Shown: positions 12,296 to 62,351 of the stretch, in pieces | How the letters are laid out: each line of letters begins with the position of its first letter | How positions within the stretch are numbered: position 1 is the first letter of the stretch | Source: Solirubrobacterales bacterium | GTDB lineage: Bacteria; Actinomycetota; Thermoleophilia; Solirubrobacterales; 70-9 | Direction of reading: 5' to 3' | DNA: 64,000 bases | Assembly: GCA_035556755.1 (NCBI GenBank) | Contig: DATMEP010000096.1 | Location: forward strand, 1,110-65,109 | Position numbers and translations under genes: made by a program | The notes under the pieces: generated by a model | Database searches by the model: none | What the model was told of the DNA's origin: nothing | Seen by the model: only the letters and a program-made list of their open reading frames with translations

Positions 12296-13120
12296 GTGAT
12301 CCCCAGCCTCACCCTCCACGACGGCGTCGAGATTCCGCAGCTCGGCTTCGGCGTCTTCCAGGTGCCGCCCGAGGAGACCCAGCAGGCGGTCGAGGAGGCA
12401 CTGGCCGCCGGCTACCGCCACGTCGACACGGCCGCCGCCTACCGCAACGAGAGGGGCGTCGGGTCGGCGATCGCCGCGTCGGGCCTGCCGCGCGAGGAGG
12501 TCTTCGTCACGACCAAGCTGTGGAACTCCCAGCAGGGCTACGACTCCACCCTGCAGACCTTCGAGAAGAGCCTTGGCCGGCTCGGCTTCGAGCACGTCGA
12601 CCTCTACCTGATCCACTGGCCGGTCCCGACGGAAGACCGCTTCGTCGAGACCTGGCGCGCCTTCGAGCGCATCCGCGAGGAGAAGCGCGCCCGCACGATC
12701 GGCGTCTCCAACTTCCGGATCGAGGACCTGGAGCGGCTGGAAGCCGAGACCTGGATCCGGCCGACGGTCAACCAGGTCGAGCTGCACCCGCTGTTCCAGC
12801 AGGCCGAGCTGCGCGCCTGGCACGCCGAGCACGGGATCGCGACCGAGGCCTGGAGCCCGCTGGCGCAGGGGGCGGTGCTGGCCGACGAGACGCTCGTCTC
12901 GATTGCCGAGCGTTACGGCAGGACCCCGGCGCAGGCGGTCCTGCGCTGGCACCTGCAGCTCGGCAACGTGGTCATCCCCAAGTCGGTGACGCCGGAGCGC
13001 GTGCACGAGAACGTCGACGTCTTCGACTTCGAACTGAGCGAGGCGGAGATGGACGAGATCGGCGGCCTCGACACCGGCAACCGCGGCGGCCCCGATCCCG
13101 CCACCTTCGTCTCGCCCTAG
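12296..13120 (+). CDS. Aldo/keto reductase (2,5-diketo-D-gluconate-reductase-like)
   Basis: 274 aa with GYRHVDTAAAYRNE, LYLIHWP and IPKS motifs. GTG start. Confidence 0.9.
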   Translation: MIPSLTLHDGVEIPQLGFGVFQVPPEETQQAVEEALAAGYRHVDTAAAYRNERGVGSAIAASGLPREEVFVTTKLWNSQQGYDSTLQTFEKSLGRLGFEHVDLYLIHWPVPTEDRFVETWRAFERIREEKRARTIGVSNFRIEDLERLEAETWIRPTVNQVELHPLFQQAELRAWHAEHGIATEAWSPLAQGAVLADETLVSIAERYGRTPAQAVLRWHLQLGNVVIPKSVTPERVHENVDVFDFELSEAEMDEIGGLDTGNRGGPDPATFVSP

Positions 13121-13140
13121 GGTTCCCCTCGCATCCAACC

Positions 13141-13177
13141 CATCACGTTTTCCATGTGTGGGATGGAAAACGTGATG
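13141..13177. repeat. 37-nt palindromic repeat, copy 1 (CATCACGTTTTCCAT-N7-ATGGAAAACGTGATG)
   Basis: The 15-bp arms are perfect and the loop is gtgtggg. It lies between the convergent stops at 13120 and 13183. Confidence 0.9.
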
Positions 13178-13182
13178 AGATT

Positions 13183-14664
13183 TCAGGCCGCGACCGCGAC
13201 CGGCTGTGGGGCGCGGCTGAGAAAGTCGTCCGGCTCGAAGCGGGAGAGGCGGCGGCGCAGCTCGATCGTCGAGCCCGGGAACATCGTGCTGTTGCGTCCG
13301 TTGACGTCGAGGTAGTAGCTGCTGCAGCCGCCCGCGTTCCAGACCGTTCCCTGCAGTCGCGACTGGACCTCGGCGTTGAACCGCTCCTGCACGTCGGCCC
13401 TTACCTCGAAGCTCGCCAGCCCCTCGCGGGACATCGCCCCCAATGCGTCGACCATGTATTCGATCTGGGTCTCGGAGAGCATGAACGCCGAGGAGTGGCC
13501 GTTGCCGATGTTGGGGCCGAGCAGGAGGAAGAAGTTGGGGAAGCCGTGGACGACGCTGCCGAGGTAGCCGGTCGGACTGCCCTGCCAGGTGTCGGCCAGC
13601 GTGCGGCCCTCGCGCCCGCGGACGCGTTCGGCGATCGGCAGGTCGGTGATCGTGAAGCCGGTGCCGAGCACGATCGTGTCGACCTCGCGCTCGACCCCGT
13701 TGGCGTCGACGAGGCCGTTCGGCCGCACCTCCTCGACCGCGTGCGGGACGACCTCGACGTTCGGCCTGGTCAGCGCCTGGTACCACTCGTTCGAGAAGAG
13801 CAGCCGCTTGCAGCCGAGCGTGTAGTCGGGGGTGAGGATGCGGCGCAGCTCGGGGTCGGCGACGGTGCGGCGGATGTGCGCTTCGCCCGCTCGCTGGAGG
13901 GGGCCCAGCAGGCGCGGGTTGCGCATCGCGAGCCCGATCAGCTCGCTGACGTAGTAGAGGCCGTTGCGGATCGCGCGCTGGGAGGCGGGGTAGCGGCGGA
14001 AGAGCTGGTGTGCCCGGGGGCCGAGCGGGCGGTCGGCCTTCGGCAGCACCCAGTGGGCGGTGCGCTGGAAGAGCGTCAGCTGCCCGACCCTGGGCTGGAT
14101 CGCGGGCACGAACTGGACTGCCGATGCGCCGCTGCCGATCACCGCGACCCGGGCACCGTCGAGCCGGTGCTCGTGGTCCCAGCGCGAAGAGTGGAAGGCC
14201 TTGCCCTCGAACTCGTCCAGCCCGGGCAGGGACGGGATCACCGGCTCGCTCCAGGGCCCGGTCGCCGAGACCAGCACCTGGGCGGCGTAGTCGCCGGCGC
14301 TGGTCTGGATCAACCAGCGACGCCGCGCCTCGTCCCACTCGGCCGCGAGCACGTCGGCACCGCAGCGGATCCGGTCGCCGACCCCGTGCGCACCGGCGAC
14401 GTCGAGCAGGTAGCGCTGGATCTCCGCCTGCGGTGCGAAGGCCCTGCTCCAGTTGGGCTTCGGGGCGAAGGAGTAGGAGTAGAGCGCGGTGGGGACGTCG
14501 CAGGCACAGCCGGGGTAGGTGTTGTCGCGCCAGGTGCCGCCCGGCACGGCTCCGCGCTCGAGCAGGACGAAGTCCTCGATCCCGGCGCGGCGCATGTGGA
14601 TCGCCGCGCCGATCCCCGACATGCCGGCGCCGATCACGGCGACCCTGACCTCCCGCGGGCTCAT
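13183..14664 (-). CDS. Flavin-dependent (Baeyer-Villiger-type) monooxygenase
   Basis: 493 aa with GAGMSG and GSGASA dinucleotide folds and the FEGKAFHSSRWD (FxGxxxHxxxW) fingerprint. Confidence 0.85.
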   Translation of the reverse strand: MSPREVRVAVIGAGMSGIGAAIHMRRAGIEDFVLLERGAVPGGTWRDNTYPGCACDVPTALYSYSFAPKPNWSRAFAPQAEIQRYLLDVAGAHGVGDRIRCGADVLAAEWDEARRRWLIQTSAGDYAAQVLVSATGPWSEPVIPSLPGLDEFEGKAFHSSRWDHEHRLDGARVAVIGSGASAVQFVPAIQPRVGQLTLFQRTAHWVLPKADRPLGPRAHQLFRRYPASQRAIRNGLYYVSELIGLAMRNPRLLGPLQRAGEAHIRRTVADPELRRILTPDYTLGCKRLLFSNEWYQALTRPNVEVVPHAVEEVRPNGLVDANGVEREVDTIVLGTGFTITDLPIAERVRGREGRTLADTWQGSPTGYLGSVVHGFPNFFLLLGPNIGNGHSSAFMLSETQIEYMVDALGAMSREGLASFEVRADVQERFNAEVQSRLQGTVWNAGGCSSYYLDVNGRNSTMFPGSTIELRRRLSRFEPDDFLSRAPQPVAVAA

Positions 14665-30048: not shown

Positions 30049-31098
30049 GTGGACTTGAGATGCAAAGCAGGGACCTTGGTTGTCATGCTGCTGGCAGCCT
30101 GCGCCCTGCCCTCCGCAGCGCCAGCCGATCCGCCAACGCTGAACTGCCGCTACCTGGAGGTGGACCCGCCCGGTCCGAGCGGCAACCGGCTCGAAGTCAA
30201 CGGCACCGGGAACGTGGCGATCGGTCGCGACGGACCGTTGGTCACGGTCTCTCTGACCGGGAGCACCGGCATCCGGATCGAGGAGCGGATCGAGTGCGCC
30301 AGGGGTGTCGCGGAAGTGACCAACCTCGATCAGATCGTCTACAGGCCGCCGGAATCCCCAGGTCAGGTCCTGATCGACGAGCGCGGCGGCAGGTTCGAGC
30401 CGGGAGCGACGGACGAGATCGACGTCGGCGACGAGATCGAGATCTCGGTCCTGTTGCCTCCTCGTGCCGGCGAGCGGAACCCGCGGGTCAATGTCCTCGG
30501 CACTCCCGGCGCCGACTTCATCGGCGCCGGTGACCTGGCCGCGGGACGCTACGGAGTCAACCTCAACTGGGGCCGGGACACGGAGGTGAAGGACTCCGAC
30601 CTGCTGATCGCCGCGTCGAGCGGCACCCGGCTGCAACTCGCCGGAGGCGGTGGCGGCGATCGCCTCAACGCCGCCGGCGGCAAGGAGTTCGCCCGCCCGG
30701 TGTCGCTGCCGTCGTTCAGCATGCTCGGCGAAGACGGCAACGACCTCCTGCTCGGGGGTCGACACAGCGACTTCCTCGAGGGCGACGAAGGGGACGACAC
30801 GATCTACGGTCGCGGCGGCGCCGACAACATCTACGCCGGTCCCGGCCGCGACCGGGCCCTGGGCGCAGGCGGCGACGACCAGATTCGCGGCGCCCGCGTC
30901 AGCGAAGACGATTTCGAGCCCGACGTCTACGTGGGTGGCTCGGGCGACGACTACATCTCCGCCCGCTACGGCGGACGCGACAGCGTGCTCTGTGGCTCGG
31001 GCTTCGACGACGTATGGGTCGACCCGTACGACACCTGGCGTCGCTGCGACGACGTCCAGATCGCCAAGCAGCCACGGCGCGCGTCCGCCTCGTCGTAA
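30049..31098 (+). CDS. Secreted calcium-binding (RTX/hemolysin-type repeat) protein
   Basis: 349 aa with a signal/lipobox-like N-terminus (VVMLLAACALPSA) and C-terminal GGxGxD-type nonapeptides (GDEGDDTIYGRGGADNIYAGPGRD..). Confidence 0.7.
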   Translation: MDLRCKAGTLVVMLLAACALPSAAPADPPTLNCRYLEVDPPGPSGNRLEVNGTGNVAIGRDGPLVTVSLTGSTGIRIEERIECARGVAEVTNLDQIVYRPPESPGQVLIDERGGRFEPGATDEIDVGDEIEISVLLPPRAGERNPRVNVLGTPGADFIGAGDLAAGRYGVNLNWGRDTEVKDSDLLIAASSGTRLQLAGGGGGDRLNAAGGKEFARPVSLPSFSMLGEDGNDLLLGGRHSDFLEGDEGDDTIYGRGGADNIYAGPGRDRALGAGGDDQIRGARVSEDDFEPDVYVGGSGDDYISARYGGRDSVLCGSGFDDVWVDPYDTWRRCDDVQIAKQPRRASASS

Positions 31099-31102
31099 AT
31101 CG

Positions 31103-31139
31103 CATCACGTTTTCCATGTCAGGGATGGAAAACGTGATG
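31103..31139. repeat. 37-nt palindromic repeat, copy 2
   Basis: catcacgttttccat-gtcaggg-atggaaaacgtgatg begins 4 nt after the stop at 31098. Confidence 0.9.
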
Positions 31140-31270
31140 GTTTGCGTGGATGGATCCGTGGCGTTGTTCGGGCCAGACGTGGCCCGGACGGGGGCGCGGC
31201 TGTCGTTGGCGGGTACGGCTCCGGGGCCGAGCATCGGTGGCACTGGTTCACCGATTCGAAAGGAAATGCC

Positions 31271-32317
31271 ATGCGCAGCAAGTCACTTCTCATCTCAGCC
31301 CTTGCCCTGCTCAGCCTCGCCCTGCCGGCGAGCGCGGCGGCGGCGGCCTCGACCGGGGCCGTCGTCTTCTCGAAATCGTCGACCGTCGACGGCATCGCCA
31401 AAGGCGGCCTCTTCGCGGTCCGCGACGGCCGCCTCAACCAGCTGACCGAAGATCCCTCCGACACCGAACCCGCCTTCTCCGCCGACGGACGGACGATCGC
31501 CTACGCCCGCAGCGGCGACCTCTACTCGGTCCGACCGGACGGCTCCGGCCAGCGGCGGCTGACCAGCGGTGCCGAGCTTGACTCCGCCCCGCTGGTCTCG
31601 CCCGACGGCCGCCGCGTCGTCTTCGAGCGCCGCGCCACGGCCGCCGGTCCCGCCGACCTCTACACGGTGCGGGCGCTCGGCGGCGGCGTGCGGGCGCTGA
31701 CCACCGGGGCCGAGGACGACCACCAGGCGGACTTCTCGCCGGATGGCCGCGCGATTGTCTTCGTCCGCGGCAGCGGCGGTCCGCCCAACAGCAAGGAGGA
31801 CCTCTACTCGGTCCGCCCGAGCGGGGCCGGCCTCGCCCGCCTGACCCGGACCGGCGGCGTCGACGAGTTCAAGCCGCGCTACTTCAGGGGCGGGATCCTC
31901 TTCAGCCGCGGCGAGAGCACCGAGGGGCCGGCGGAATACGCCGACGTCTACACGATGCGTCGCAACGGCACGCGGGTGAAATCGCTGGTCGCCGGCGTCG
32001 GCTCCGCCTATGTCGAAGACGTCGCCTCCAACGGGCGCACGCTGCTCTTCCGCCGTGACCAGGGCCTCTGGTCGAAGCGGATCGGGCCGGGCAAGGCTCG
32101 CAAGCTCTGCCAGCTGCCCGACGGTTCGGAGACCAACGGCGTCTTCTCCTCCGACGGGCGCCGCGTCGCCGCCTTCGTCGAGGTCGAAGAGCGGCAGTCG
32201 CTGGTCGCGATCGGCCTCGACAGCCGCCGCCAGACCCAGCTGGCCGAAGGCTTCGAGATCGCCGAAAAAGACGGCACCGCGATCGGTCCGGTGATCGCAT
32301 GGCAGCCGGTCACGTAG
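31271..32317 (+). CDS. Secreted TolB/PD40-like beta-propeller protein
   Basis: 348 aa with a signal peptide (LALLSLALPASAAAAAS) and repeated SADGRTIAY / SPDGRRVVF / SPDGRAIVF / SSDGRRVAAF units. Confidence 0.75.
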   Translation: MRSKSLLISALALLSLALPASAAAAASTGAVVFSKSSTVDGIAKGGLFAVRDGRLNQLTEDPSDTEPAFSADGRTIAYARSGDLYSVRPDGSGQRRLTSGAELDSAPLVSPDGRRVVFERRATAAGPADLYTVRALGGGVRALTTGAEDDHQADFSPDGRAIVFVRGSGGPPNSKEDLYSVRPSGAGLARLTRTGGVDEFKPRYFRGGILFSRGESTEGPAEYADVYTMRRNGTRVKSLVAGVGSAYVEDVASNGRTLLFRRDQGLWSKRIGPGKARKLCQLPDGSETNGVFSSDGRRVAAFVEVEERQSLVAIGLDSRRQTQLAEGFEIAEKDGTAIGPVIAWQPVT

Positions 32318-32354
32318 AGCGGCGCCAACCCCCACACGGCGATATAACCGCCGT

Positions 32355-34172
32355 GTGGGGGAAATTTCGATTGGCTCGACCCTTGCCGGCTACCGGCTTG
32401 ACGCGCTGATCGCGCGGGGTGGGATGGGGGTCGTCTACCGGGCGACCCACGTCGCCCTCGAACGGCCGGTGGCGTTGAAGGTGATCGCCCAGCACCTGGC
32501 CGAGAAAGAGGATTTCCGCCAGCGCTTCCTGCGCGAGTCGAGGCTCGCCGCCCGACTCGACCATCCCAGCGTCGTGCCGATCCTCGACGCCCGCGAGGAG
32601 GACGGCGAGCTGATCGTCGCGATGCGGCTGATCGCCGGCGGCGACCTGAAGAAGCGGATCGCGGAACACGGCCCGCTGCCGCCGCAGGAAGCAATCGACC
32701 TGCTCGCCCAGATCGCCGACGCGCTCGACGCCGCCCACGCGGCCGGCGTCGTCCACCGCGACGTCAAGCCCCACAACATCCTGCTCGAAGGCGATCGCGC
32801 CTACCTCACCGATTTCGGGCTCGCCAAAGCGCTCGGCGACTCCGGCGTGCTCAGCGACGCCTCGGTCGTCGGCACGGTCGAATACATGTCGCCGGAGCAG
32901 TGGCGGGGCGCGCGGGTCGGCCCGGCGGCGGACGTCTACTCGCTCGGTTGCGTCCTCTACGAGGCGCTGACCGGGATCGCTCCCTTTGCCCACAGGGCGG
33001 ACGACACCGAGCCGGAGATGCCGGAGGGGCTGGACGCGGTGATCGAGCGCGCCGTCGCCAAGGACCCCGGCGAGCGCTACCCGACCGCCGGCGCCCTGAT
33101 CGAGGCGGCGCGGGCGCACCAGGGGGCGACGCCGGCGGCCACCCGGGTGCTCTCCGAGCGGCCGGAGCAACCGACCCTGCGCCTCGGCGGTGCGCCCGCG
33201 GGTGGCGGGACCCTCGATGGCTTGCGGGACCGGGCCGCGGATCTGCCCTGGCGCTGGCTGCTCCCCGGATTCGCCGCAGTCGCGGTGGCGATCGTCCTCG
33301 CCCTCGTGGTGCTCGGCGGCGACGAGGTCTCGGTCTCGGACCCGATCGACGTCGGCCCGGGCCCGCTGCGACTCGCCGTCGGCGAAGGCGCGGTTTGGGT
33401 CAGCAGCGCGGCCGCCGGGACGCTTTCGCGGATCGACCCGGCGCAGGAGGAAGTCGCCGGCGAGCCGCTTCGCCTCGGCCGCGGCGTCTCCGGCGTCGCC
33501 GTCGGCGAGGGCGCGGTCTGGGTCTCGAGTCCGCGCACCGGCAGCGTGCTGCGGGTCGACCCGGTCGAGCGGGTGACGACGAGGATTCCCGTCGGCGGCC
33601 GGCCCGGCGCGATCGTCGTCGGCGGCGGCCGCGTCTGGGTCGCCGACGAGGCCGGCGGCGGGATCGCCGCGATCAACCCACGCGGCGGGCGGGTCTTCAA
33701 GCGCGGCATCGTGCCCCGCGCCACCCCGCTGCGACTCGCGGTCGGCGCCGGCGCGGTCTGGGTCAGCAGCGCCTCGACCGGCTCGGTCCGCCGCATCGAC
33801 TTCGGCACCGCCACCGCCGACGCGCCGGTCGCGGTCGGGCGCGGCCCGGCCGGGGTCACGGTCGGCGGCGGCCTGGTCTGGGTCGCGAGCAGCCGCTCCG
33901 ACCAGGTCTCGCGCGTCGACCCGGCGACGCGGTCGCTGTTCGGCGAGCCGGTCGAGGTCGGCGAGCGGCCCGGCGGGATCGACGCCGGCACCAGCGTCGT
34001 CTGGGTCGCCAACTCGGCCGAAGGCACGGTCAGCCGGATAGATATCGAGAGCGGCGAGACGGTCGGCGACCCGGTCGAGGTCGGCGCTGGACCGGGCGCG
34101 GTGGTCGTCGGCGAGGAGGCCGTCTGGGTCGCCAACAACGGCGACGGCACGGTCACTCGGATCGAGCCCTGA
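32355..34172 (+). CDS. Ser/Thr protein kinase with TM segment and 7-repeat extracellular beta-propeller
   Basis: 605 aa with GGMGVVY, VALK, HRDVKPHNIL, DFGLA and SPEQ kinase motifs. There is one TM helix (LLPGFAAVAVAIVLALVVL). Seven ~40-aa repeats follow, of the form ..G.GP..(L)AVG.GAVWV(S/A).. Confidence 0.9.
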   Translation: MGEISIGSTLAGYRLDALIARGGMGVVYRATHVALERPVALKVIAQHLAEKEDFRQRFLRESRLAARLDHPSVVPILDAREEDGELIVAMRLIAGGDLKKRIAEHGPLPPQEAIDLLAQIADALDAAHAAGVVHRDVKPHNILLEGDRAYLTDFGLAKALGDSGVLSDASVVGTVEYMSPEQWRGARVGPAADVYSLGCVLYEALTGIAPFAHRADDTEPEMPEGLDAVIERAVAKDPGERYPTAGALIEAARAHQGATPAATRVLSERPEQPTLRLGGAPAGGGTLDGLRDRAADLPWRWLLPGFAAVAVAIVLALVVLGGDEVSVSDPIDVGPGPLRLAVGEGAVWVSSAAAGTLSRIDPAQEEVAGEPLRLGRGVSGVAVGEGAVWVSSPRTGSVLRVDPVERVTTRIPVGGRPGAIVVGGGRVWVADEAGGGIAAINPRGGRVFKRGIVPRATPLRLAVGAGAVWVSSASTGSVRRIDFGTATADAPVAVGRGPAGVTVGGGLVWVASSRSDQVSRVDPATRSLFGEPVEVGERPGGIDAGTSVVWVANSAEGTVSRIDIESGETVGDPVEVGAGPGAVVVGEEAVWVANNGDGTVTRIEP

Positions 34173-37326: not shown

Positions 37327-39047
37327 GCGACGGGTCGGGGGCTGCGTCCGCGGCGCCGTTGCGCGAGGCCGAGTCCTGGCGGGCGCTGGAGGATCACCAC
37401 GCCGACCTCCACGACCTCCATCTGCGCGACCTCTTCGCCGCCGACCCGCAGCGGGGAGAGCGGCTCGTCGCCGGCGGTGCCGGTCTCCATCTCGACTTCT
37501 CCAAGAACCGGATCACCGACGAGACGGTGATCCTGCTCGGCGAGCTGGCGCGCGAGCGCGGCGTCGAGGAGCGCCGCGAAGCGATGTTCGCCGGCGAGCA
37601 CATCAACGTCTCCGAGGACCGTGCCGTCCTCCATGTGGCGCTGCGGATGCCGCGCGGGCGCTCGCTGGTCGTCGACGGCGTCGACGTGATCAAGCAGGTG
37701 CACGAGACGCTCGACCGGATGGCCGCCTTCGTCGAGCGGGTCCGCTCCGGCGAGTGGGTCGGCCACACCGGCGAGCCGATCCGCAACGTCGTCAACGTCG
37801 GCATCGGCGGCTCGGACCTCGGTCCCGTGATGGCCTACGAGGCGCTGCGCCACTTCAGCCGCCGCGAGATGACCTTCAGGTTCGTCTCCAACGTCGACGC
37901 CACCGACTTCGCCGAGTCGACCCGCGACCTCGATCCCGAGGAGACCCTGTTCGTGATCTCCTCGAAGACCTTCACCACGCTGGAGACGATGACCAACGCC
38001 CACACCGCGCGCGAGTGGGCGCTGGCCGGGCTCGGCGGCGACGAGGCGGCGGTCGCCAAGCACTTCGTCGCGGTCTCCACCAACGCCGAGGAGGTGTCGA
38101 AGTTCGGCATCGACACCGAGAACATGTTCGGCTTCTGGGAGTGGGTCGGGGGCCGCTACTCGATGGACTCGGCGATCGGCCTCTCGACCATGCTCGCGAT
38201 CGGGCCGGCCCGCTTCGAGGAGATGCTGGCCGGCTTCCACGCGATGGACGAGCACTTCCGCACCGCGCCGCTGGCCGAGAACCTCCCCGCCCTGATGGGG
38301 CTGCTCGCGGTCTGGTACGGCGACTTCTTCGGCGCCCAGACCTGCGGCGTCTTCCCCTACGACCAGTACCTGCACCGCTTCCCGGCCTACCTGCAGCAGC
38401 TGACGATGGAGTCGAACGGCAAGCACGTCACCCTCGACGGCGCCCGGGTCGACTACGACACCGGCGCCATCTACTGGGGCGAGCCGGGGACCAACGGCCA
38501 GCACTCCTTCTACCAGCTGATCCACCAGGGGACGCGGCTTATCCCCTGCGACTTCATCGGCTTCATGCGCTCCAACAACCCGCTCGGCGACCACCACGAC
38601 CTCCTGATGTCGAACGTCTTCGCCCAGAGCGAGGCGCTCGCCTTCGGCAAAACGCCCGAGCAGGTGCGGGCCGAGGGGACGCCGGAGGCGGTCGTCCCGC
38701 ACCGGACGATGGAGGGCAATAGACCGTCGAACACGATCCTCGCCGAGCGGCTCGACCCGCACACCCTCGGCACCCTCGTCGCCCTCTACGAGCACAGCAC
38801 CTTCGTCCAGGGAAGTGTGTGGGGGATCGACTCCTTCGACCAGTGGGGAGTCGAGCTGGGCAAGGCGCTGGCGGTCGCGATCATCCCGGAGCTGCAGGCC
38901 GACGACGAGCCCACGCTGCGCCACGACAGCTCGACCAACGCGCTGATCCGCCGCTACCGGCAGGCACGCCATCACGTTTTCCATGACCTGGATGGAAAAC
39001 GTGATGAGATTTCGCCGGAGCCCGGCCAAGCAGAGCCCGCGGAGTAA
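37323..39047 (+). CDS. pgi: Glucose-6-phosphate isomerase, with a C-terminal extension read through a palindromic repeat
   Basis: 574 aa with [14 protein letters not shown] and [12 protein letters not shown] motifs. After ..[13 protein letters not shown] the frame continues [25 protein letters not shown] across repeat copy 3. The GTG overlaps the tal stop. Confidence 0.9.
38970..39006. repeat. 37-nt palindromic repeat, copy 3 (inside the 3' end of the pgi ORF)
   Basis: catcacgttttccat-gacctgg-atggaaaacgtgatg. It shares the 3' flank agatttc with copy 1. Confidence 0.9.
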
Positions 39048-39050
39048 GCC

Positions 39051-40436
39051 TTGCCGCTCCTCGACGCCCTCCCACTCGCGGCGTCGGAGTCCAATCTGCT
39101 CGCCGCCCGCGAGATGATGGCGTTCACGCTCGCCTTCCACATCGTCCTCGCCTGCCTCGGCGTCGCCCTGCCGGCGATCATCCTCGTCGCCAACTGGCTG
39201 GGGCTGAAACGCGACGATGAGGACGCGATGCGGCTGGCGCGGCGCTGGTCGAAGGCGATGGCGGTCACCTTCGCGGTCGGCGCCGTCACCGGCACCGTGC
39301 TCAGCTTCGAGTTCGGCCTGCTCTGGCCCGAGTTCATGGAGCGCTACGGCGACGCCTTCGGCATCGCCTTCGCGATCGAGGGGCTCTTCTTCTTCACCGA
39401 GGCGATCTTCCTCGCGATCTACATCTACGGCTGGGAGCGGTTGAGCGGCTGGGCGCACTTCTGGGCCGGGGTGCCGATGGTGATCACCGGGATCGGCGGC
39501 GCCTTCTCGGTGGTGACGGCGAATGCCTGGATGAACCAGCCGCAGGGCTTCACGCTCGACGCGGCGGGCAAGGTCGTCGACACCGACCCGCTGCAGGTCC
39601 TCTTCAACCCGGCCTGGCACTACGAGGTGCCGCACATGATCCTCGCCGCCTACATGGTGGCCGGCTTCCTCGTCGCCTCGATCTACGCGGTCGGGATGCT
39701 GCGCGGGCGGCGCGACCGCCTGCACCGGCTCGGCCTGCTGATCCCACTCACCGTCGCCTGCATCGTCACCCCGGTCCAGATCTTCGTCGGCGACACCGCG
39801 GCGCGCGAAGTCGCCGACCACCAGCCGGCCAAGTTCGCCGGCTTCGAGTGCATCCAGGAGACCGGCCCCAACCAGACCGAGTACATCGGCGGCATCTGCA
39901 CCGACGACGGGGTCAAGGGGGCGATCGGAATCCCCGGCCTCGACTCGCTGCTGGTCGGCTTCAGCACCGACACCGTGGTGACCGGCCTCGAGGACATCCC
40001 GCCCGACGAGCGCCCGCCCGCCAACACCCTGCTCCACCTCTCCTTCGACGCGATGGTCGGGATCGGCACGGCGCTGCTCGGGCTCGCCGCCTGGCTCGCC
40101 TTCGTCTGGTGGCGCCGTCGCGACATCCCCCAGACCAAGTGGTTCCTGCGCGCCGTCTCGGTTTCCGGCGTCGCCGCGATCGTCGCGCTGTGGTGCGGCT
40201 GGATCGTCACCGAGGTCGGCCGCCAGCCGTGGATCGTGCAGGGCTACATGCGCACCTCCGAAGCGGTGACCGAGGCGGAGGGGATCTGGTTCGCCTTCGC
40301 CGGGACGCTGCTCCTCTACGCGGCGCTGGGGACGACCGCGATCCTCGTCCTGCGCGGCATGTCCCGCCGCTGGCGCGAGGAGGGCGACACCGACCTGACC
40401 GAGGTCCCGTACGGCCCGACGGAGGTCTCGTCATGA
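39051..40436 (+). CDS. cydA: Cytochrome bd ubiquinol oxidase subunit I
   Basis: 461 aa, polytopic, typical CydA sequence (..REMMAFTLAFHIV.., ..GWIVTEVGRQPW..). TTG start. Confidence 0.9.
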   Translation: MPLLDALPLAASESNLLAAREMMAFTLAFHIVLACLGVALPAIILVANWLGLKRDDEDAMRLARRWSKAMAVTFAVGAVTGTVLSFEFGLLWPEFMERYGDAFGIAFAIEGLFFFTEAIFLAIYIYGWERLSGWAHFWAGVPMVITGIGGAFSVVTANAWMNQPQGFTLDAAGKVVDTDPLQVLFNPAWHYEVPHMILAAYMVAGFLVASIYAVGMLRGRRDRLHRLGLLIPLTVACIVTPVQIFVGDTAAREVADHQPAKFAGFECIQETGPNQTEYIGGICTDDGVKGAIGIPGLDSLLVGFSTDTVVTGLEDIPPDERPPANTLLHLSFDAMVGIGTALLGLAAWLAFVWWRRRDIPQTKWFLRAVSVSGVAAIVALWCGWIVTEVGRQPWIVQGYMRTSEAVTEAEGIWFAFAGTLLLYAALGTTAILVLRGMSRRWREEGDTDLTEVPYGPTEVSS

Positions 40437-50493: not shown

Positions 50494-50847
50494 CTATCTC
50501 TCGCCCTCAGGCACCCTGAAGATCTGCTTCAGCTGCTCGTCGTGGTGACCGAGCTTTGCTCCAGTCTCTCGCTCAAGCTCTTCGAGCCGTTCTTCAATCG
50601 CAGAGTATGAAGCTGCAATGCGGCGAAGCTCGACGAATACCCGCATGATCTCTACCAGCGGACGGTTCCGACGACCCCCGTGCCCTCCACTTGAAATCAC
50701 AAATTGTGATTTCAAGTCGCTGAACTCTTGCGCGGACAGCTGGAACATGAAGCCGTCGGGAAAGCGCTTGATGTTGCGTTTTACTTGCAGAACCAGGACC
50801 CTGGTCTCGACGCCGTAAAGGACTGCGAGATCCTCATCGAGCATCAC
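50494..50847 (-). pseudogene. ORF6N-domain (phage/KilA-N-related) gene remnant
   Basis: ..VMLDEDLAVLYGVETRVL.QVKRNIKRFPDGFMFQL..LKSQFV matches the ORF6N pattern as I remember it. The frame is open upstream (..EKRILVVRERQ) with no start codon. About 25 aa appear to be missing internally after GGRRN. Confidence 0.55.
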
Positions 50848-52953: not shown

Positions 52954-52975
52954 ACGAATACCCTTTGGCCAACCG

Positions 52976-53065
52976 GAGAGGTGTCCGAGTGGCTTAAGGA
53001 GCGCGACTGGAAATCGCGTGGGCGGGGTTAACCCGCCTCGTGGGTTCGAATCCCACCCTCTCCGC
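52976..53065 (+). tRNA. tRNA-Ser (anticodon GGA)
   Basis: The 90-nt class II cloverleaf has acceptor ggagagg/cctctcc. The anticodon arm is cgcga-ctGGAaa-tcgcg, the long variable arm is gggcggggttaacccgcctc and the T-arm is gtggg-ttcgaat-cccac. CCA is not encoded. Confidence 0.95.
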
Positions 53066-53271
53066 TCCTAGCGCTTCACCGTTCGATGAAAGATACGGCG
53101 GTCCTCAAACTACATAAAGTATTAATAAAATTCTCTTGATTATTTCCCCTAGGATGGTGGCGGAGATGGCGTCGATTTGCAAGGGAAGGCGCTGGCATAG
53201 GACTCGATACGCACAAGGGGAATCCGGAGTTAGGCAACGGGCCGGCTCGCACGAGTCGGTCGCGGGTCCCG

Positions 53272-54285
53272 GTGCTGGCAGGCAGCCGAGCGCTTTCGAT
53301 CTTTGCCTATGCGCTGAACGCGCGAACCCTGCGGGCCCACGCCGATGGCGCGCTGCGAGCGAGTGACCTAGAAGAGACAATCGGCTGGGCGCCGCAGACG
53401 AGTCTCCGGGCTGCCGTGGCCAACCTCTGCGAGCTGGGCGTCCTCGCCAAGCGGGATCCCAGCAGCGAGTCAAGGTGCCTTACTACCGAGATCACCTCGG
53501 CCGGCCGTGACCTCCTCACGGTCGCCGATCGGCTCGAGTATTGGCTGCTGCACGCCCCGAAGGGCCCGATCCAGCTCGACGGCGCCGCCGCTGCAGGCGC
53601 GATCAGGGCGCTGATCGGCGGCTGGGACTCGACTATCGTCAGAGTGCTCGCGGAGCGGCCTCTCACGCTGACCGAGCTCAACTCCGAAATCCCGGACATA
53701 AGCTATCCGGCGCTTGAGCGTCGTCTGTCCAAGCTGCGCTCCACGAATCTCGTCACCGCAATCGAGAGCACGGGCAAGGGCAAGCCCTATGCCGTGAGCG
53801 ACTGGCTCTGCCACGCGATTGCCCCACTTGCCGTCGCGGGACGGTGGGAGCGAAGCTATATGGCCGACAATGTCGCCCCTATCTCCCATGTCGAGGTCGA
53901 GGCTTCGTTCCTGCTCACCCTTCGGTTGGTGGAACTTTCCCACAGCACTACCGGAGCCTGCGCGCTTGCCGTGCTCACGTCAGCAGGAGATGCCGGAGGG
54001 GAGGAGAGGCAGGTGGCCGGCGTCACCCTTGGGGTGCGGGAGGGAGAGATTGTCTCCTGCAGCTCCGATACCGCCTCCGACCCACCCACGTGGGCGCTGG
54101 GCACCTCGGACGCTTGGCTCGAAGCTGTGGTCGACGGCCGTCTCGATGCTCTTCGAGTTCGAGGCGCCAAACCGGACCTACCGATGAACATCGTCCAAGA
54201 CATCCACGATCTCCTCTTCCCGCCGTTAAGTACCGCAAATTTGCGCGTGTTAGACACCGACTTACAGCGATTTGCAGGCAGATAA
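53272..54285 (+). CDS. Tandem winged-helix (HxlR-like) transcriptional regulator with a C-terminal SCP2-like region
   Basis: 337 aa. The second wHTH is WDSTIVRVLAERPLTLTELNSEIPDISYPALERRLSKLRSTNLV. It is the first gene of the A+T-richer island. Confidence 0.6.
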   Translation: MLAGSRALSIFAYALNARTLRAHADGALRASDLEETIGWAPQTSLRAAVANLCELGVLAKRDPSSESRCLTTEITSAGRDLLTVADRLEYWLLHAPKGPIQLDGAAAAGAIRALIGGWDSTIVRVLAERPLTLTELNSEIPDISYPALERRLSKLRSTNLVTAIESTGKGKPYAVSDWLCHAIAPLAVAGRWERSYMADNVAPISHVEVEASFLLTLRLVELSHSTTGACALAVLTSAGDAGGEERQVAGVTLGVREGEIVSCSSDTASDPPTWALGTSDAWLEAVVDGRLDALRVRGAKPDLPMNIVQDIHDLLFPPLSTANLRVLDTDLQRFAGR

Positions 54286-54428
54286 CCCGAGATCCATGAA
54301 CCCCGCCGGTTTCTCGTGTCGCCTTCCGCAAAGTTTTTCTTGACTGTTCTCTAGTTCTTCCGTTATTGATCGCCATGTCCCCGGCCATCCGGGGATAGGG
54401 AAACCAATTCAATAGGGAAGGGAATTCG

Positions 54429-55007
54429 ATGAACCTCAAGCGCATCATGCTGGTCGCCAGCATGGCACTCGCCTTGGTCGCCGTTGCCGCTCCGGCATCC
54501 GCATCGGCGAACTGGCTGAAACACCATAAACCGATCACCCAAAACGAGCATATTGAAGTCGAGGGTGTACTGGGTTTCGCGATCCCGGGGGTTGCTTCTT
54601 ATAGGTGCGAAATAGATATTACAGCCACACTATTCGCCGGAACCACAACAGGTGAGATTGACACATTTGACATCACAACAAATAAATGCGTAGGTGAAGG
54701 TGGGTTGCAAGCCTGCACCTTGAAAGGTGACCACACCTTTGATCTCCCATGGGAGATGCATGTCGAAACAAATGAAGCCGGCGAACCTGACATAACCATT
54801 ACAGACGTCACAATCACAAATACATATAACGACAATACACCTAACTGCCCGGTACATGACAGCACTGTTATCTTCCCGGCAGTGACAGCAACGCCCGATA
54901 ATCCGACCACAATGAGTACCCTAACCGTTTCGGGAACGGGTGCCGGTGGTATCCAGGCATTCGGTACGGCTTCGGTTACACCCAAAGCTACATTCGGAAT
55001 CGAATAG
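54429..55007 (+). CDS. Secreted 4-Cys beta-rich protein, island family paralog 2
   Basis: 192 aa with signal peptide MNLKRIMLVASMALALVAVAAPASASA and motifs YRCE, TTNKCVG, LPWEMHV, ITITDVTIT and SVTPKATFGIE. Confidence 0.8.
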   Translation: MNLKRIMLVASMALALVAVAAPASASANWLKHHKPITQNEHIEVEGVLGFAIPGVASYRCEIDITATLFAGTTTGEIDTFDITTNKCVGEGGLQACTLKGDHTFDLPWEMHVETNEAGEPDITITDVTITNTYNDNTPNCPVHDSTVIFPAVTATPDNPTTMSTLTVSGTGAGGIQAFGTASVTPKATFGIE

Positions 55008-55049
55008 CCGTTTGAGTGCACCTCACAGCGCTGCTGCGGGGTGATCTAA

Positions 55050-55096
55050 GTGGGGCCGCGTAGCCCAAAACTACGCGGCCCACTTTAGAAAATTTT
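55050..55096 (+). terminator. Intrinsic terminator after paralog 2
   Basis: gtggggccgcgtag / ctacgcggcccac form a 13-bp stem with one bulge. The loop is cccaaaa and tttagaaaatttt follows. Confidence 0.65.
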
Positions 55097-55126
55097 CGAG
55101 TTCCTTAACAAGCTTACGTGTAAATG

Positions 55127-55156
55127 TTGACAAGACCTCAGTTGTACCTCTATGGT
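55127..55156 (+). promoter_or_regulatory. Candidate sigma70-type promoter for the 775/1304-aa operon
   Basis: TTGACA (55127..55132), an 18-nt spacer, then TATGGT (55151..55156), about 85 nt upstream of the GTG at 55242. Confidence 0.35.
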
Positions 55157-55241
55157 GCCGACTGGCTCGATTGTGTCGGGCTAGTCGATTTGGGCAATAG
55201 GGAGAGCCCGGCGTGGGGCCGGGCGCGAGGGGGGGGACGAA

Positions 55242-57569
55242 GTGAGACAGCTTTCGATGTCCTGGCAGGGTAGCCGGGTCAAAGCAGGCGATACATTGTG
55301 GTTCGCATGCCTGGTATCCGCCTTTTTCTCAGCTGTATTTTTGGCGGTTTTTACTTCTTCTGCTTCTGCCGCTCCGGTTCCAGGCGATCCCTGCTCAAAT
55401 GGGGATATTCGGCTAGAACAGAACGTTGCCTTTCTTCCGGACTGCATGGCTATTGAGCTTGTCAGTCCGTCACGCAAGTTCAACCAGCGTGCCAACAATC
55501 CCCACGTTTCAGCCAACGGGCAACGCATTCGCTTTCTCTCGCCTGCTGGCTTGGCCGAAACGCCGGGTTTATTAGATCCATTTGGCGACCCATACGTTGC
55601 CACTCGTGGGCCATCCGGATGGGAAACCTTACCTACCTCTCCACCAGCCGGTTTCTTCTACGGATGGCGGAAAAACGCGGAGCCTCTCAGTTTCACGCCG
55701 GATTTCTCCAGTTGGTTTCAAATTGCAGCCACTCTGTCTCAGCGACAAATGGGTATAGCTCAAGTCTTTCAAGGGAGGCTAGATGGATCATTCTCACTAT
55801 TATTTCCGGCGTTGGTTCCGTTGGGCGGTGGTGTACCCCTAACCGTCGAAGCGAGTGATCTCCAGGGTGCGTCTGAAGATCACTCCCATCTCTACTTTCG
55901 CCCGGGGCCCAAGGCCGCTGGTGGTGCTGATCGTCTGACTTCCTATCTATCGGGCGATCCGAGTCCATCCGGACCGGGCGCCGACTACAATGTCTATGCT
56001 GTGGCTTTCACGCCTTCGGACGTGCCTTTCATTGTTCTTCTTTCGCGTGATGGAGAGGGGAAAGTATGGGGTGGTAATTGTGGCGCTCGTCTTGGCGGCA
56101 TAGGGGAGTTTGTGGGAGTCGGTCCGTTCCCTGCACCTAACGGAAATAGAAATCAACACGCCATTTCTACGGACGGTACTCGCGTGTACTTCTCTGCCCG
56201 TGCGGCTCAACCCGAATCCGGGCCCTGCACTGAAGCGAATAAACTACGTATTCTCAAGCGAATTGAGGCTCAAGACGGGCCATGGATCAGTCGCTTGCTT
56301 AAAGAGCCCTCCGGGGATTGCGATCGAGTAGCACCACCTTGTAGTGCAGCCGATGGTGATGACCTTTACCAAGGGGCGTCCATGGACGGCACTAAGGTTT
56401 ATTTCACTACCAATCGTACGGTTGCTGACTCCGATCTCGATGACAGCGCCTCCCAATGCAGTCTTACGATCGCTCAGCCCGGCTGCGACTTGTATCTTTA
56501 CGACTCCACGCTGCCCCCCGGTCAGCGGCTGATCCAGGTTTCGGCCGGTGAGACTGTCCCTGGGTTGCACGAAGCTGGTAAAGAAGCAAAGGTATTCAAT
56601 TCGGTCGCGGCAATTTCCGGAGACGGTTCTCACGTCTATTTCGCTGCCGAAAATGTTCTTACCTCAGATAAGAATCCCGAAGACGGCGAAGCGCAACCAG
56701 GCCAGCCGAACCTATACGTCTGGGATTCTGCGACTAAATCCCTTGCTTTCATCGGTGCCTTGGCGTCAGGTGATCAAGGTGCTCTCTGGGGTGGGGAAGG
56801 CACCTTCAAGAACAATGCCTATCCGGTGCCTGCAGTGGATGAGAATCTCGGTCAAATCGGGGGAGATGGGCATATCCTTCTTTTTCTCTCAAAAGCTCCC
56901 CTCACGGCAGATGACGGGGACGGCCTTAGTCGTGACCTATTCCGTTACGACGCAGAGTCTGAGCAGTTGGAGCGGATTTCGAAGGCGGTACCGGGAGGAA
57001 ACGACAACGGCGCGTTCGACGTGGCCTCGCGTGGCAATCCTTTTGTCCCTGGTACCGACTTTGCTGAGGACGGTCGATGGGCGAGTGAGGATGGTGAGAC
57101 CGTCGTTTTTTCAACTAACGAGACTCTCGTCCCAGACGGTATTGGTGGCGACGGTAACTCTTACCTCTGGCGGAGGGGGCAGTTGGTCCGCCTGCCGGGT
57201 GGCACTCCTGTTCTCTCCCATGACGGTTCTACGGCTGCCTTTACGACTCCAGCCCAGCTTCTGCCCGAGGATGGGGATTCAATCGGCGATGTTTACGCAG
57301 CTAGAGTGGAAGGGGGTTTTCGAAAACCGCCCCCTATACCGGTCTGCATACCCAACGGGAACGAGGGGTGTCAAGGTTCCTCTGATGCTGTCCCCAGCGT
57401 TCCCAGCGCTCAGGGGCTCGGGCTTTTAAGTCAGGGCAATGTAAAGCTGGACCCGGTGCGTAACTGCCCTCGCGGCAAGCGGAGGGTTCAGCGCAAAGGG
57501 AAAACTCGCTGCGTTAAGCGGCCAAATCACGAGAAACGAACCAGCCGCAAGCAGGGGGGCCAGCGATGA
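55242..57569 (+). CDS. Secreted seven-repeat (PD40/TolB-like propeller suspected) protein with a Cys + poly-basic C-terminal tail
   Basis: 775 aa with a signal peptide (..FLAVFTSSASA). There are seven spaced (S/G)xDG..(V/I/L).F units: SANGQRIRF, STDGTRVYF, SMDGTKVYF, SGDGSHVYF, GGDGHILLF, SEDGETVVF, SHDGSTAAF. The tail reads NCPRGKRRVQRKGKTRCVKRPNHEKRTSRKQGGQR. Confidence 0.75.
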   Translation: MRQLSMSWQGSRVKAGDTLWFACLVSAFFSAVFLAVFTSSASAAPVPGDPCSNGDIRLEQNVAFLPDCMAIELVSPSRKFNQRANNPHVSANGQRIRFLSPAGLAETPGLLDPFGDPYVATRGPSGWETLPTSPPAGFFYGWRKNAEPLSFTPDFSSWFQIAATLSQRQMGIAQVFQGRLDGSFSLLFPALVPLGGGVPLTVEASDLQGASEDHSHLYFRPGPKAAGGADRLTSYLSGDPSPSGPGADYNVYAVAFTPSDVPFIVLLSRDGEGKVWGGNCGARLGGIGEFVGVGPFPAPNGNRNQHAISTDGTRVYFSARAAQPESGPCTEANKLRILKRIEAQDGPWISRLLKEPSGDCDRVAPPCSAADGDDLYQGASMDGTKVYFTTNRTVADSDLDDSASQCSLTIAQPGCDLYLYDSTLPPGQRLIQVSAGETVPGLHEAGKEAKVFNSVAAISGDGSHVYFAAENVLTSDKNPEDGEAQPGQPNLYVWDSATKSLAFIGALASGDQGALWGGEGTFKNNAYPVPAVDENLGQIGGDGHILLFLSKAPLTADDGDGLSRDLFRYDAESEQLERISKAVPGGNDNGAFDVASRGNPFVPGTDFAEDGRWASEDGETVVFSTNETLVPDGIGGDGNSYLWRRGQLVRLPGGTPVLSHDGSTAAFTTPAQLLPEDGDSIGDVYAARVEGGFRKPPPIPVCIPNGNEGCQGSSDAVPSVPSAQGLGLLSQGNVKLDPVRNCPRGKRRVQRKGKTRCVKRPNHEKRTSRKQGGQR

Positions 57570-60500: not shown

Positions 60501-61480
60501 ACGTCAATACCGGCAAGGCCTACCTCGCCGGTCCCTACAAAGGTGCGCCGCTGAGTCTGGCGCTGGTTGTCCCGGCGGTGGCTGGGCCGCTCGACCTCGG
60601 CAACGTGGTCGTGCGCACCGCCCTGTACATCAACCCGAAAACGGCCCAGATCACGGCCGTCTCGGACCCGATCCCGACCATCCTCCATGGCATCTTGCTC
60701 GACGTCAGGGACATTCGGGTGGCGATCGACCGGCCTAACTTCATCGTCAATCCAACTAATTGCGAACCGCTCTCGGCTGGCGCGACGGTGAAGGGAGATG
60801 AGGGCGCCACCGCCAATGTCTCCAGCCCGTTCCAAGTTGGAAATTGTGCCGGCCTTGGGTTTAAGCCAAAGGTTTCGCTGAGGCTTAAAGGCGGTACCAG
60901 GCGAGGCGACAATCCGGCTCTTACGGCTGTCCTGACGCCGCGGGCGGGTGACGCGAACGTTGCCAGGGCGGCTGTGACGCTGCCTCGGTCCGCCTTCCTG
61001 GACCAGGCGCACATAAGGACGGTCTGCACCCGGGTCCAGTTCGCGGCGGACCAGTGCCCGAAAGCGGCCATTTATGGCCGGGCCGTGGCGGAGACCCCGC
61101 TGCTCGACCAACCGCTCGCGGGCCCCGTCTACCTGCGCTCGTCCAGCAACCAACTGCCGGACCTGGTCGCCGACCTGAGGGGTCCTGCCCACCAGCCGAT
61201 CCAGGTCGAGGCGGCGTTCCGCACCGATTCGATCAGAGGTGGGATCAGGAGCACCCTCGACCTCGCCCCGGATGCCCCGGTGACCAAGTTCACGCTGAAG
61301 ATGCAGGGCGGCAAAAAGGGCCTGGTCGTCAACAGCCAGAACCTCTGCGCCAACGTCAACCGGGCCAACGTGCGGCTCAACGCACAGAATGGCCGCCGGT
61401 TCAACTCACGGCCAAAGGTCGTGGCGACGAACTGCGGCAAAGGGCGCTCGGGGAAACGCAAAGGCAAAAGGGCGCGCTAG
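57566..61480 (+). CDS. Giant N-terminally anchored protein with two Ig-like repeats, a ~1000-aa uncharacterised region and a Cys + poly-basic tail
   Basis: 1304 aa. The ATG overlaps the upstream stop (ATGA). There is an N-terminal TM (VFWLAGFLTGLIAGIIGLSV). Two C...W..(S/E)PTF.(F/Y)QW.RNG...G....TY..QAAD.....QC.V.A.N repeats follow. The tail reads NCGKGRSGKRKGKRAR. Confidence 0.8.
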   Translation: MIEICYRSTTFYYYNTQGVIHVFWLAGFLTGLIAGIIGLSVNPMNAVAVPTLGAYIEKDELSVSRSDERINYTVTVANVARVVSGAELTCNPTAWGGSSPTFSFQWLRNGVAIPGAEASTYGLQAADNGQVIQCRVTATNTVVDIGGGFAGSTRVASGFIVDPVPSAAPPMTAGTPTLTLSVGGSLNVGGDPSATAPPTTLTCATGLWRGEPTFNYQWYRNGIPLSGNGAATNTYAVQAADVATSATFQCAVKAANASGAATKVSANLATNPAPSPVAPSNNNTLSVSSMSETSTPISGVVNVEVHLPESESTFAYKIFNGTNEEIAPSGWTCSSQPPSGGLQAKVSCNRANALNPGALYPPIAIGTALGDDLPNVAIASATVSGGGAPLAASAFNEFTFTPPRLFDITAFETKVPNEGGVVEETQAGGHPLAARATFSFAKKRVLIPPSVLPGDRYAPMGRARLIATDTPRGFVGNALAVPELCSSMEVVLAQTCPSGSVVGGVTIDGFGTKIENMPIYAIEPEFGVPAQFAFPHKLSETVYTFTPRLRPEDGYAITLESAPALVNPALRDVQATICGFGATTGGPFNEFVSCKKATQIGANPVPLVTLPTRCAAEPPTTVLRVDAWENPGEFAVKEFEAPAVTGCDAVEFEPEIELTPTSVQADSPTGLDVSLTMPTDGLESPTGISQANLKRATVTLPAGMAVNAAAGHGLAACTATQVKMKTNNPIECPDGSKIGTIAIVTPLIQEKLTGSVYIAKQNDNPFDEMIGLYMVFESEKDGILIKIAGKVIPDPKTGQLVITFDDNPEAPFSSVDLHFAQGPRSPLLNPRRCGAYEIKAELTPWNAADPNNPTAEETVVQTSTFEVTEGPNGGSCPGGGLDPKLTTGSSNPVAGGHGSFLMTLKRDDGTQRFTALAVTVPTGLTADLRGIPYCPDAVLASIPTAEETGQAEIDNPSCPAASQIGTSSAGAGAGPDPFYVNTGKAYLAGPYKGAPLSLALVVPAVAGPLDLGNVVVRTALYINPKTAQITAVSDPIPTILHGILLDVRDIRVAIDRPNFIVNPTNCEPLSAGATVKGDEGATANVSSPFQVGNCAGLGFKPKVSLRLKGGTRRGDNPALTAVLTPRAGDANVARAAVTLPRSAFLDQAHIRTVCTRVQFAADQCPKAAIYGRAVAETPLLDQPLAGPVYLRSSSNQLPDLVADLRGPAHQPIQVEAAFRTDSIRGGIRSTLDLAPDAPVTKFTLKMQGGKKGLVVNSQNLCANVNRANVRLNAQNGRRFNSRPKVVATNCGKGRSGKRKGKRAR

Positions 61481-61539
61481 CGCCCGCAAAACTCGCGCGG
61501 CACGACCGCACAGCGGTAGCCCTGGCGCCGCGTTGAGAA

Positions 61540-62280: not shown

Positions 62281-62292
62281 TTCTCTGACGTC

Positions 62293-62330: not shown

Positions 62331-62351
62331 GCTGTCGGCGTGGACCGTCGG

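Follow-up and report, generated by a model that had tools for sequence, protein, structure and literature searches.

The 64,000-nucleotide stretch analysed here, called the window below, comes from the Solirubrobacterales bacterium assembly GCA_035556755.1 (contig DATMEP010000096.1, positions 1,110 to 65,109 of the forward strand). It holds three copies of a palindrome, CATCACGTTTTCCAT-N7-ATGGAAAACGTGATG, at the ends of genes for an aldo/keto reductase (AKR), for a protein with RTX calcium-binding repeats and for glucose-6-phosphate isomerase (pgi) (Table 1). The initial annotation had reported them as three 15-N7-15 repeats with identical arms and different loops, and an exact pattern search found just that: three matches with 0 mismatches, whose loops read gtgtggg in copy 1, gtcaggg in copy 2 and gacctgg in copy 3. 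No near-miss of the 37-mer occurs in the window at up to 3 mismatches, and none of 100 dinucleotide-preserving shuffles of the window contained a match, again with 3 mismatches permitted. The shared 3' flank agatttc of copies 1 and 3 and the low G+C content of the arms (6/15 each, or 40%, in a window of 68% G+C) were likewise seen again in the sequence. As copy 2 carries its GATTT flank on the left, it is inverted relative to copies 1 and 3, judging by the flank.

The positions given for the copies at gene ends were also correct. Copy 1 lies 20 nt past the AKR stop codon (13118-13120) and 5 nt before the stop codon (13183-13185) of a convergent gene for an FMO-like flavin monooxygenase; on the minus strand, its outer arm AAATCT shares base 13183 with that stop codon, TGA. 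Copy 2 begins 4 nt past the TAA (31096-31098) of the RTX-repeat gene. Copy 3 falls within the final 26 codons of pgi, its end being 44 nt upstream of the cydA start.

Table 1. The three palindrome copies and the genes around them, in window coordinates. R1 is the covariance model built from the repeat family.
Feature	Position	Strand	Basis
Copy 1 core, 15-7-15, loop GTGTGGG	13141..13177	.	exact match, hairpin fold, R1
63-nt segment absent from the L198 FMO/AKR junction: 20 nt + core + AGATTT	13121..13183	.	
Copy 2 core, loop GTCAGGG	31103..31139	.	exact match, R1, fold
Copy 2 with outer arms TAAATCG / GTTTGCG	31096..31146	.	sequence
Copy 3 core, loop GACCTGG, translated in frame within pgi	38970..39006	.	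exact match, translation
69-nt in-frame insertion at the pgi 3' end: core + AGATTT + 26 nt	38970..39038	+	
Aldo/keto reductase (AKR) gene, upstream of copy 1	12296..13120	+	Pfam PF00248, E = 5e-54
FMO-like flavin monooxygenase gene, convergent with AKR	13183..14664	-	Pfam PF13738, PF00743
RTX calcium-binding-repeat protein gene, upstream of copy 2	30049..31098	+	Pfam PF00353
PD40 protein gene, downstream of copy 2	31271..32317	+	Pfam
pgi (glucose-6-phosphate isomerase; start approximate), holds copy 3	37365..39047	+	PF00342, E = 1.8e-219
cydA, start 4 nt past the pgi stop	39051..40436	+	Pfam PF01654

The three palindromes belong to a previously undescribed family of hairpin repeats of uncultured soil Solirubrobacterales. 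A search of the genome collection with the exact 37-mer pattern added a single copy, in a Solirubrobacterales metagenome-assembled genome (MAG). The relaxed pattern ACGTTTTCCAT-N{3,12}-ATGGAAAACGT retrieved 23 loci, all in Solirubrobacterales MAGs, and further relaxation to GTTTTCCAT-N7-ATGGAAAAC, together with one metagenome scan, enlarged the set to 56 non-redundant copies, all from G+C-rich DNA. Their sources are 13 Thermoleophilia MAGs, one MAG labelled Gordonia (4 copies) and soil metagenomes, one of which (Ga0190265) holds 8. SMAG_U1671 has 9 copies and SMAG_U640 has 8, and long-read MAGs have 1-2 per Mb. Singleton matches in low-G+C genomes and viral contigs were set aside as chance, for they lack the stem sequence of the family, its outer-arm blocks and its multi-copy occurrence; several of them are ordinary palindromic hairpins with a T-run after them. 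Searches of viral contigs and of phage and plasmid records yielded chance matches only or nothing. Rfam 15 has no family at the sites, whether the whole window was scanned at gathering thresholds or the surroundings of copy 2 in E-value mode, where only generic miRNA-hairpin noise appeared, and a literature search on palindromic repeats in Solirubrobacterales returned nothing relevant.

Each 37-mer of the window folds into a perfect 15-bp hairpin (-21.6 kcal/mol as RNA, -15 kcal/mol as DNA), and copy 2 with its flanks reaches -28 kcal/mol as RNA. The palindrome is perfect as first described, but it does not stop at 15 bp per arm: the median stem in the family is 18 bp, with a range of 12-25. 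The outer arms read (G)TAAATCY / RGATTTA(C) in the lineage of the window, and a TAAATCY arm such as that of copy 2 recurs at loci L082, L088 and L099. Outer blocks differ by lineage, with CCCC...GGGG in the CAAC lineage and CACAAAC-N6 in the Solirubrobacterales locus L046 and the Gordonia-labelled MAG. The loop had been considered free. Its sequence does differ between copies, but its length is 7 nt in 23/23 Solirubrobacterales loci of the only scan that permitted 3-12 nt (the other scans fixed it at 7), and its composition, read in one orientation, is S-Y-S-W-K-G-G. Overall the element is about 37-55 nt long, has no coding capacity and concentrates its conserved bases at the centre rather than at the ends. 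In the Gordonia-labelled MAG, four identical 51-nt perfect palindromes, CACAAACGGCGGGGTTTTCCAT-N7-ATGGAAAACCCCGCCGTTTGTG, stand at gene 3' ends (L028, L044, L058 and L074); they agree with L046 in box, loop length and CACAAAC outer block.

The most conserved part is an apical 9-bp box, GTTTTCCAT/ATGGAAAAC, which adjoins the loop and is the same in all 56 copies, the box being also the search key. Scans of 926 kb with mismatches allowed found variants of it to be rare, namely a single copy whose box has one mismatch (L082) and a single relic (L070:1378), and no lone half-site was found either in the window or in these 926 kb of related DNA. The covariance model R1 gave the known copies 38-73 bits (62.6 for copy 1 and 61.8 for copy 2) and found one decayed relic, at 21 bits, in 373 kb, with nothing scoring in between. 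This relic (L070 1363-1417, in MFD02416.bin.c.17) has intact outer arms, GGTGTAACGCGTTT/AAACGCGTTACACC, around a degenerate box.

Below the box, what is kept is pairing rather than sequence. The lower stem occurs with the compensated pairs ACG/CGT, GCG/CGC, ATG/CAT, AAG/CTT, GGG/CCC and TGG/CCA, and the foot with CATC/GATG, CAAC/GTTG, CGTC/GACG, ACGC/GCGT and GGCG/CGCC; three compensated variants coexist within the single genome SMAG_U3859. In the alignment of the 56 sequences, 82.6% of the cells are paired, as against 71.6% after shuffling, and 182 cells are changed on both sides, as against 92. None of 500 shuffles reached the observed pairing values, and all slid registers were far lower.

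The family is biased towards the 3' ends of genes, in agreement with what the initial annotation had proposed from three copies. On one side at least, a convincing open reading frame (ORF) has its stop codon within 60 nt of 38 of the 56 copies; 11 are flanked by convergent genes, few are found in clearly divergent promoter regions, and a single copy is clearly inside an ORF. The distance from the stop codon to the base of the extended stem is at most 10 nt at 25 of 49 gene ends and at most 30 nt at 43 of 49. TAA stops are enriched near the element (9/37, compared with 24/432 in the remainder of these loci; odds ratio 5.5, p = 4e-4). Part of this excess arises because the element itself carries TAA, as the first triplet of the outer arm TAAATC, which serves as the gene's stop in copy 2 of the window and in L099; in L082, TAAATCT is present and unused as a stop. 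The neighbouring genes are ordinary and diverse, among them pgi, pyruvate kinase (pyk), ychF (YchF) and genes for aldehyde dehydrogenases, methylmalonyl-CoA mutase, thiolase and aminotransferase. The orientation of the loop showed no relation to the direction of the upstream gene (12 vs 7) or to local GC skew.

Comparison with orthologous sites in relatives, which had been suggested as a check, shows that the three window copies are lineage-specific insertions, since those sites are empty. Among pgi loci collected from 80 genomes by a protein-guided scan, the gene ends 3-8 residues after RRYR, typically as RRYRxxRxxE*, in more than 45 Thermoleophilia and other relatives, and the window alone has the extension. 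The DNA alignment gives a net gain of 22 residues, with GGAGTAA, the cydA ribosome-binding site together with the pgi stop, preserved. The pgi-cydA junction is empty in L029 and L128. Since the gap between the two genes is 2-12 nt in relatives, copy 3 is almost certainly within one transcript. At the FMO/AKR junction, L198 (FMO 92% identical in amino acids, with an orthologous convergent AKR) has no intergenic DNA, the two stops overlapping as CTAG, whereas the window has 63 extra bases that start exactly with the arm AAATCT, by which TGG became TGA and two codons were trimmed. In the RTX-PD40 spacer of L201, which is without the element, the upstream gene ends with ...IAKR-TGA and a well-conserved PD40 leader follows; the window has about 81 extra bases holding the element there, and the stop of the gene is the element's TAA. 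At these last two genes (FMO and RTX) the outer arm completes or supplies the stop codon.

The distribution of the family is patchy. Judged by pgi, the closest four relatives (90-91% identity; one of them is the complete 2.96-Mb chromosome OY969812.1) have no exact-box match in the whole-collection scan, and R1 applied to 442 kb, made up of the window and the loci of relatives, found nothing beyond the three window copies. Locally, the window has 3 copies per 64 kb, compared with 1-2 per Mb in other long-read MAGs. Two further loci may be mentioned here. The pgi gene of CRAIB_MAG25 (L136 4561-4680) has a different C-terminal extension of 17 residues at the same spot, without a palindrome and with a tail, DEPTPNPAGRESAE*, that resembles that of the window; the site may be a hot spot, or the extension may be left over from an old insertion. 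SMAG_U1780 has a copy of its own (L029 609-645), with two G-T wobbles in the stem, exactly at a synteny breakpoint that joins homologues of window positions ~45860 and ~42157.

Once present, copies are maintained. Three pairs of orthologous occupied sites were found in different species (L006/L022, L013/L107 and L021/L104). In all three the surrounding DNA has 80-89% identity, non-coding flanks do not align and loop sequences are different, whereas the box and the ACG positions are identical within each pair. In L013/L107 the whole 15-nt arm is the same, and in L021/L104 the single differing position makes a G-T pair. In L006/L022 the outer 4 bp have shifted to the variant of each genome, AATC/GATG (imperfect) against CAAC/GTTG. 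Because arms are kept at orthologous sites and relics are near absent, selection or continual homogenisation is taken to act on the pairing and on the box. The earlier suggestion that the arms are under selection thus holds between species, with loops and flanks left to diverge.

The identity of multiple copies, the covarying stem with its conserved box and fixed loop, the insertion polymorphism and patchiness, the survival at gene ends and the lack of coding capacity fit the class of repetitive extragenic palindromic (REP) sequences and of the mycobacterial TRIT motif. We consider it probable, at roughly 55%, that the three palindromes represent copies of one small hairpin element that is mobile and non-coding, REP-like or TRIT-like, with an apical box that would be recognised by a protein. 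Its anatomy and the evidence for insertion are well supported, while the protein partner, the transposition mode and the influence on RNA are inferred. Of the label 'REP/MITE-like' given at the outset, mobility is borne out by the insertion polymorphism, but the hallmarks of a typical miniature inverted-repeat transposable element (MITE) are missing: we found no parent insertion sequence with terminal inverted repeats, no lone arm in 926 kb and no consistent target-site duplication.

REP and REPIN repeats, together with their RAYT enzymes, are known from Enterobacteria, Pseudomonas and Stenotrophomonas (PMC2817692, PMC3116915). Like them, the family consists of short palindromic hairpins located outside genes or at their very ends, between convergent genes or inside operons, which are homogeneous within a genome, persist at orthologous sites and code for nothing. 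Unlike REPs, it does not have the GTAG/CGTC head motif at the 5' foot, where CATC, CAAC, ACGC, GGCG and others are found; CGTC occurs only in SMAG_U1780 and covaries with GACG. The repeat is also a single, nearly perfect palindrome, as opposed to the imperfect palindrome of REPs and the doublet of REPINs. With E. coli RayT as the query, no RAYT was found beside any of the 56 copies or within 1.48 Mb of loci. Copy number seems low in most genomes, again unlike REPs, and the apical box is common across genera, possibly classes. By analogy, the element may work like a REP, yet for want of the head motif and of a RAYT in these loci it cannot be classified with the REPs.

Within the phylum its nearest counterpart, compared by description and not by consensus, is TRIT, the 'Tuberculosis Rho-independent terminator' motif, which is reported to occur in Mycobacterium only, at 147 copies per genome (Gardner et al. 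2011, PMC3152330). As portrayed there, TRIT is, like our family, an actinobacterial, lineage-restricted, palindromic and bidirectional hairpin without a U-tail, strongly conserved in both sequence and structure, whose location is narrowly confined to stop codons, which it abuts or overlaps (PMC3152330). The distances to stop codons and the 11 copies between convergent genes described above fit this picture. The passages on TRIT considered here make no mention of insertion polymorphism or in-frame insertion (PMC3152330), both of which the window family displays. A different likeness is seen in pgi, where the window copy was inserted in frame in the manner of the Rickettsia palindromic elements (RPEs); unlike in RPEs, just 1/56 copies is clearly inside an ORF. 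RPEs are 100-150 bp long, Rickettsia-specific and often inside genes, and they reportedly insert in frame into protein genes and are translated as an extra peptide.

How might such an element behave? As single-stranded DNA or as RNA it would fold into one long stem, of which the lower part need only pair. A trans-acting protein would recognise the apical box on the folded hairpin and would either copy the element to new sites or keep it intact. Insertions would survive only where they do little harm, that is at stop codons or within a few codons of them, where a stop codon can come from the A/T-rich outer arm or translation can run through the element in frame. Once in place, in either orientation, the element would form a stable 3' stem-loop on the upstream transcript. 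This stem-loop probably behaves as intra-operon REPs do, impeding exonucleases and causing weak attenuation at most, rather than terminating transcription efficiently.

Several observations weigh against the mobile-element reading. A phmmer search with E. coli RayT (NC_000913.3) against all stop-to-stop ORFs of the 1.48 Mb of loci returned nothing at E <= 10. No recurrent neighbour gene and no transposase or recombinase was present among more than 40 flanking genes; within 4 kb of the copies, the only recurrent genes are orthologous or paralogous metabolic genes (aldehyde dehydrogenase, methylmalonyl-CoA mutase). The low copy number in most genomes (1-2 per Mb in long-read MAGs) is unlike that of classical REPs. 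The three filled/empty pairs have no target-site duplication in common: a weak duplication of RQAR codons flanks the pgi insert, but nothing comparable occurs at the other two sites, and we did not accept it. The inserted segments (63, 69 and about 81 nt) exceed the conserved element by 20-40 nt, and part of the invariance of the 9-bp box reflects ascertainment by the search patterns. That perfect arms persist for long at orthologous sites would also be compatible with a function selected by the host alone. Lastly, G-T wobbles are no commoner than other mismatches (about 4 vs 7), so that neither an RNA-level nor a DNA-level hairpin is proven. The asymmetry between G-U and A-C pairs was considered as a discriminator between RNA and DNA and dropped, with few imperfect pairs and one contradictory case.

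A host-selected, factor-dependent 3'-end signal resembling TRIT is a possible alternative, which we hold only tentatively. A host protein would bind the box on RNA and either mark or terminate transcripts or protect their 3' ends; new copies would be rare and kept for their usefulness. This reading is compatible with mobility. The tight coupling to stop codons, the copies between convergent genes, the conservation of the arms across species with hardly any decayed copies, and a box common to Thermoleophilia and the Gordonia-labelled MAG all agree with such a signal, and TRIT offers the precedent of a conserved palindromic motif abutting stop codons in Mycobacterium (PMC3152330). A general 3'-end system should, however, be less patchy than a family whose exact box is missing from the nearest relatives in the whole-collection scan and whose three window sites are empty elsewhere. 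Copy 3 in the coupled pgi-cydA junction, the missing U-tract, the lack of a G-U excess and the absence of a fixed orientation relative to transcription also count against it, and even predicted TRITs match only 2-4% of the mapped 3' ends of M. tuberculosis (bioRxiv 10.1101/2022.06.01.494293). Ordinary intrinsic (Rho-independent) bidirectional terminators that share their sequence by chance are a far weaker proposition. The copies do resemble canonical terminators as stable stem-loops just past stop codons, some of them bidirectional and between convergent genes, and the initial annotation had named a terminator-type element among its options. Yet no T-run follows the stem, which is AT-rich in a 68% G+C genome, a scan for consensus terminators and promoters calls nothing at the copies, and termination does not require an identical, invariant sequence across unrelated genes and species. 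Some copies also lie within operons, copy 3 in a translationally coupled junction; for this reason, and because of the missing U-tract and the AT-rich stem, efficient termination is disfavoured.

The other option named at the outset, a palindromic binding site for a dimeric protein, is disfavoured in its simple form, since the lower stem shows covariation, even inside a single genome, and convergent genes flank many of the copies. Its most plausible version is a duplex-DNA site for a tyrosine recombinase, with arms of 9-11 bp around a 7-bp crossover region as in dif/pdif, lox or att-like sites, and we regard it as quite improbable. The cores of dif/pdif, loxP and att sites have inverted arms of 9-13 bp around a variable spacer of 6-8 bp, a geometry that the conserved arms and 7-bp spacer of the family reproduce in layout alone. 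A spacer of exactly 7 wherever its length was left free, variable in sequence and bordered by the most conserved bases, is what such a site would have, and differing spacers would prevent recombination between copies. A duplex site, however, requires neither the compensatory outer-arm changes within one genome nor pairing over 18-25 bp; no recombinase or integrase gene adjoins any copy examined, and the copies are found where ordinary metabolic genes end and do not surround cassettes or islands. Integron attC sites, which are folded single-strand hairpins at ORF 3' ends, differ in turn by their R''/R' consensus (RYYYAAC/GTTRRRY), their extrahelical bases and their cassette arrays, all absent here, where a perfect covarying helix recurs in isolation at housekeeping genes, e.g. 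pgi, pyk and ychF. Paired DNA-uptake sequences, comparable to the Neisseria DUS pairs in terminators, would explain a short conserved core that recurs in inverted pairs where genes end. Most uptake sequences stand alone and are present in very large numbers, whereas no unpaired core exists in the window or in 926 kb, and we give this idea next to no credence. With no terminator call or U-tract and no lone cores, both ordinary terminators and uptake-sequence pairs are effectively excluded.

It would be bolder, and we think it rather unlikely, to view the hairpin as the cis-element of an undescribed protein-dependent system. This might be a hairpin-mobilising enzyme unrelated to RAYT, or an Actinomycetota-wide RNA-binding factor for 3' ends, of which TRIT would be a sister case. 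Under either option the double-stranded 9-bp box and the 7-nt loop would form the recognition module, and the element would land preferentially on stop codons, donating TAA.

Repeats of this small palindromic type, REPs and TRIT among them, influence mRNA stability, operon polarity and genome rearrangement and are known mainly from Proteobacteria and mycobacteria; the mobile hairpin repeat proposed here extends them to uncultured soil Thermoleophilia. It does so with unusually clean before/after insertion sites, including an in-frame insertion in a glycolytic gene and stop codons supplied or completed by the repeat. The sharply defined module of a 9-bp box, a 7-nt loop and a covarying lower stem makes the hunt for a partner protein a well-posed one. 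For annotators of these MAGs, the covariance model helps to avoid spurious C-terminal extensions and also false gene starts, since an ATG occurs in the arm.

The window has further features of its own. Upstream of the PD40 gene, the non-coding leader (31165-31270) is about 85% identical to that of L201, the upstream RTX-like proteins being only 60% identical; it has no match in Rfam, and its conservation suggests a promoter or 5'-UTR element. A 90-nt tRNA gene (52975-53064) precedes a block of about 10 kb (53000-63000) at 54-56% G+C, against 68% for the window, in which ORFs with the codon bias of the host are few; it contains an ORF with an HxlR-type helix-turn-helix (53272-54285), a 775-aa ORF and a 1304-aa ORF with Ig domains. 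No integrase or transposase was found in this block (53-63 kb), which may be a genomic island. Tandem repeats with a period of 120-123 nt (33300-34170) fall in a 605-aa ORF (32355-34172) and are probably repeated protein units. Two other perfect palindromes differ from the family. One, CCCCCACACGGCG-atataac-CGCCGTGTGGGGG (32329-32361, 13-7-13), lies 12 nt past the PD40 stop and has a G+C-rich stem and an AT-rich loop, also without a T-tract. The other, the AT-rich ACTTGAAATCACA-aat-TGTGATTTCAAGT (50689-50717), is situated in a low-G+C kilobase inside a predicted ORF6N-domain gene (50494-50847, minus strand) and looks like an operator.

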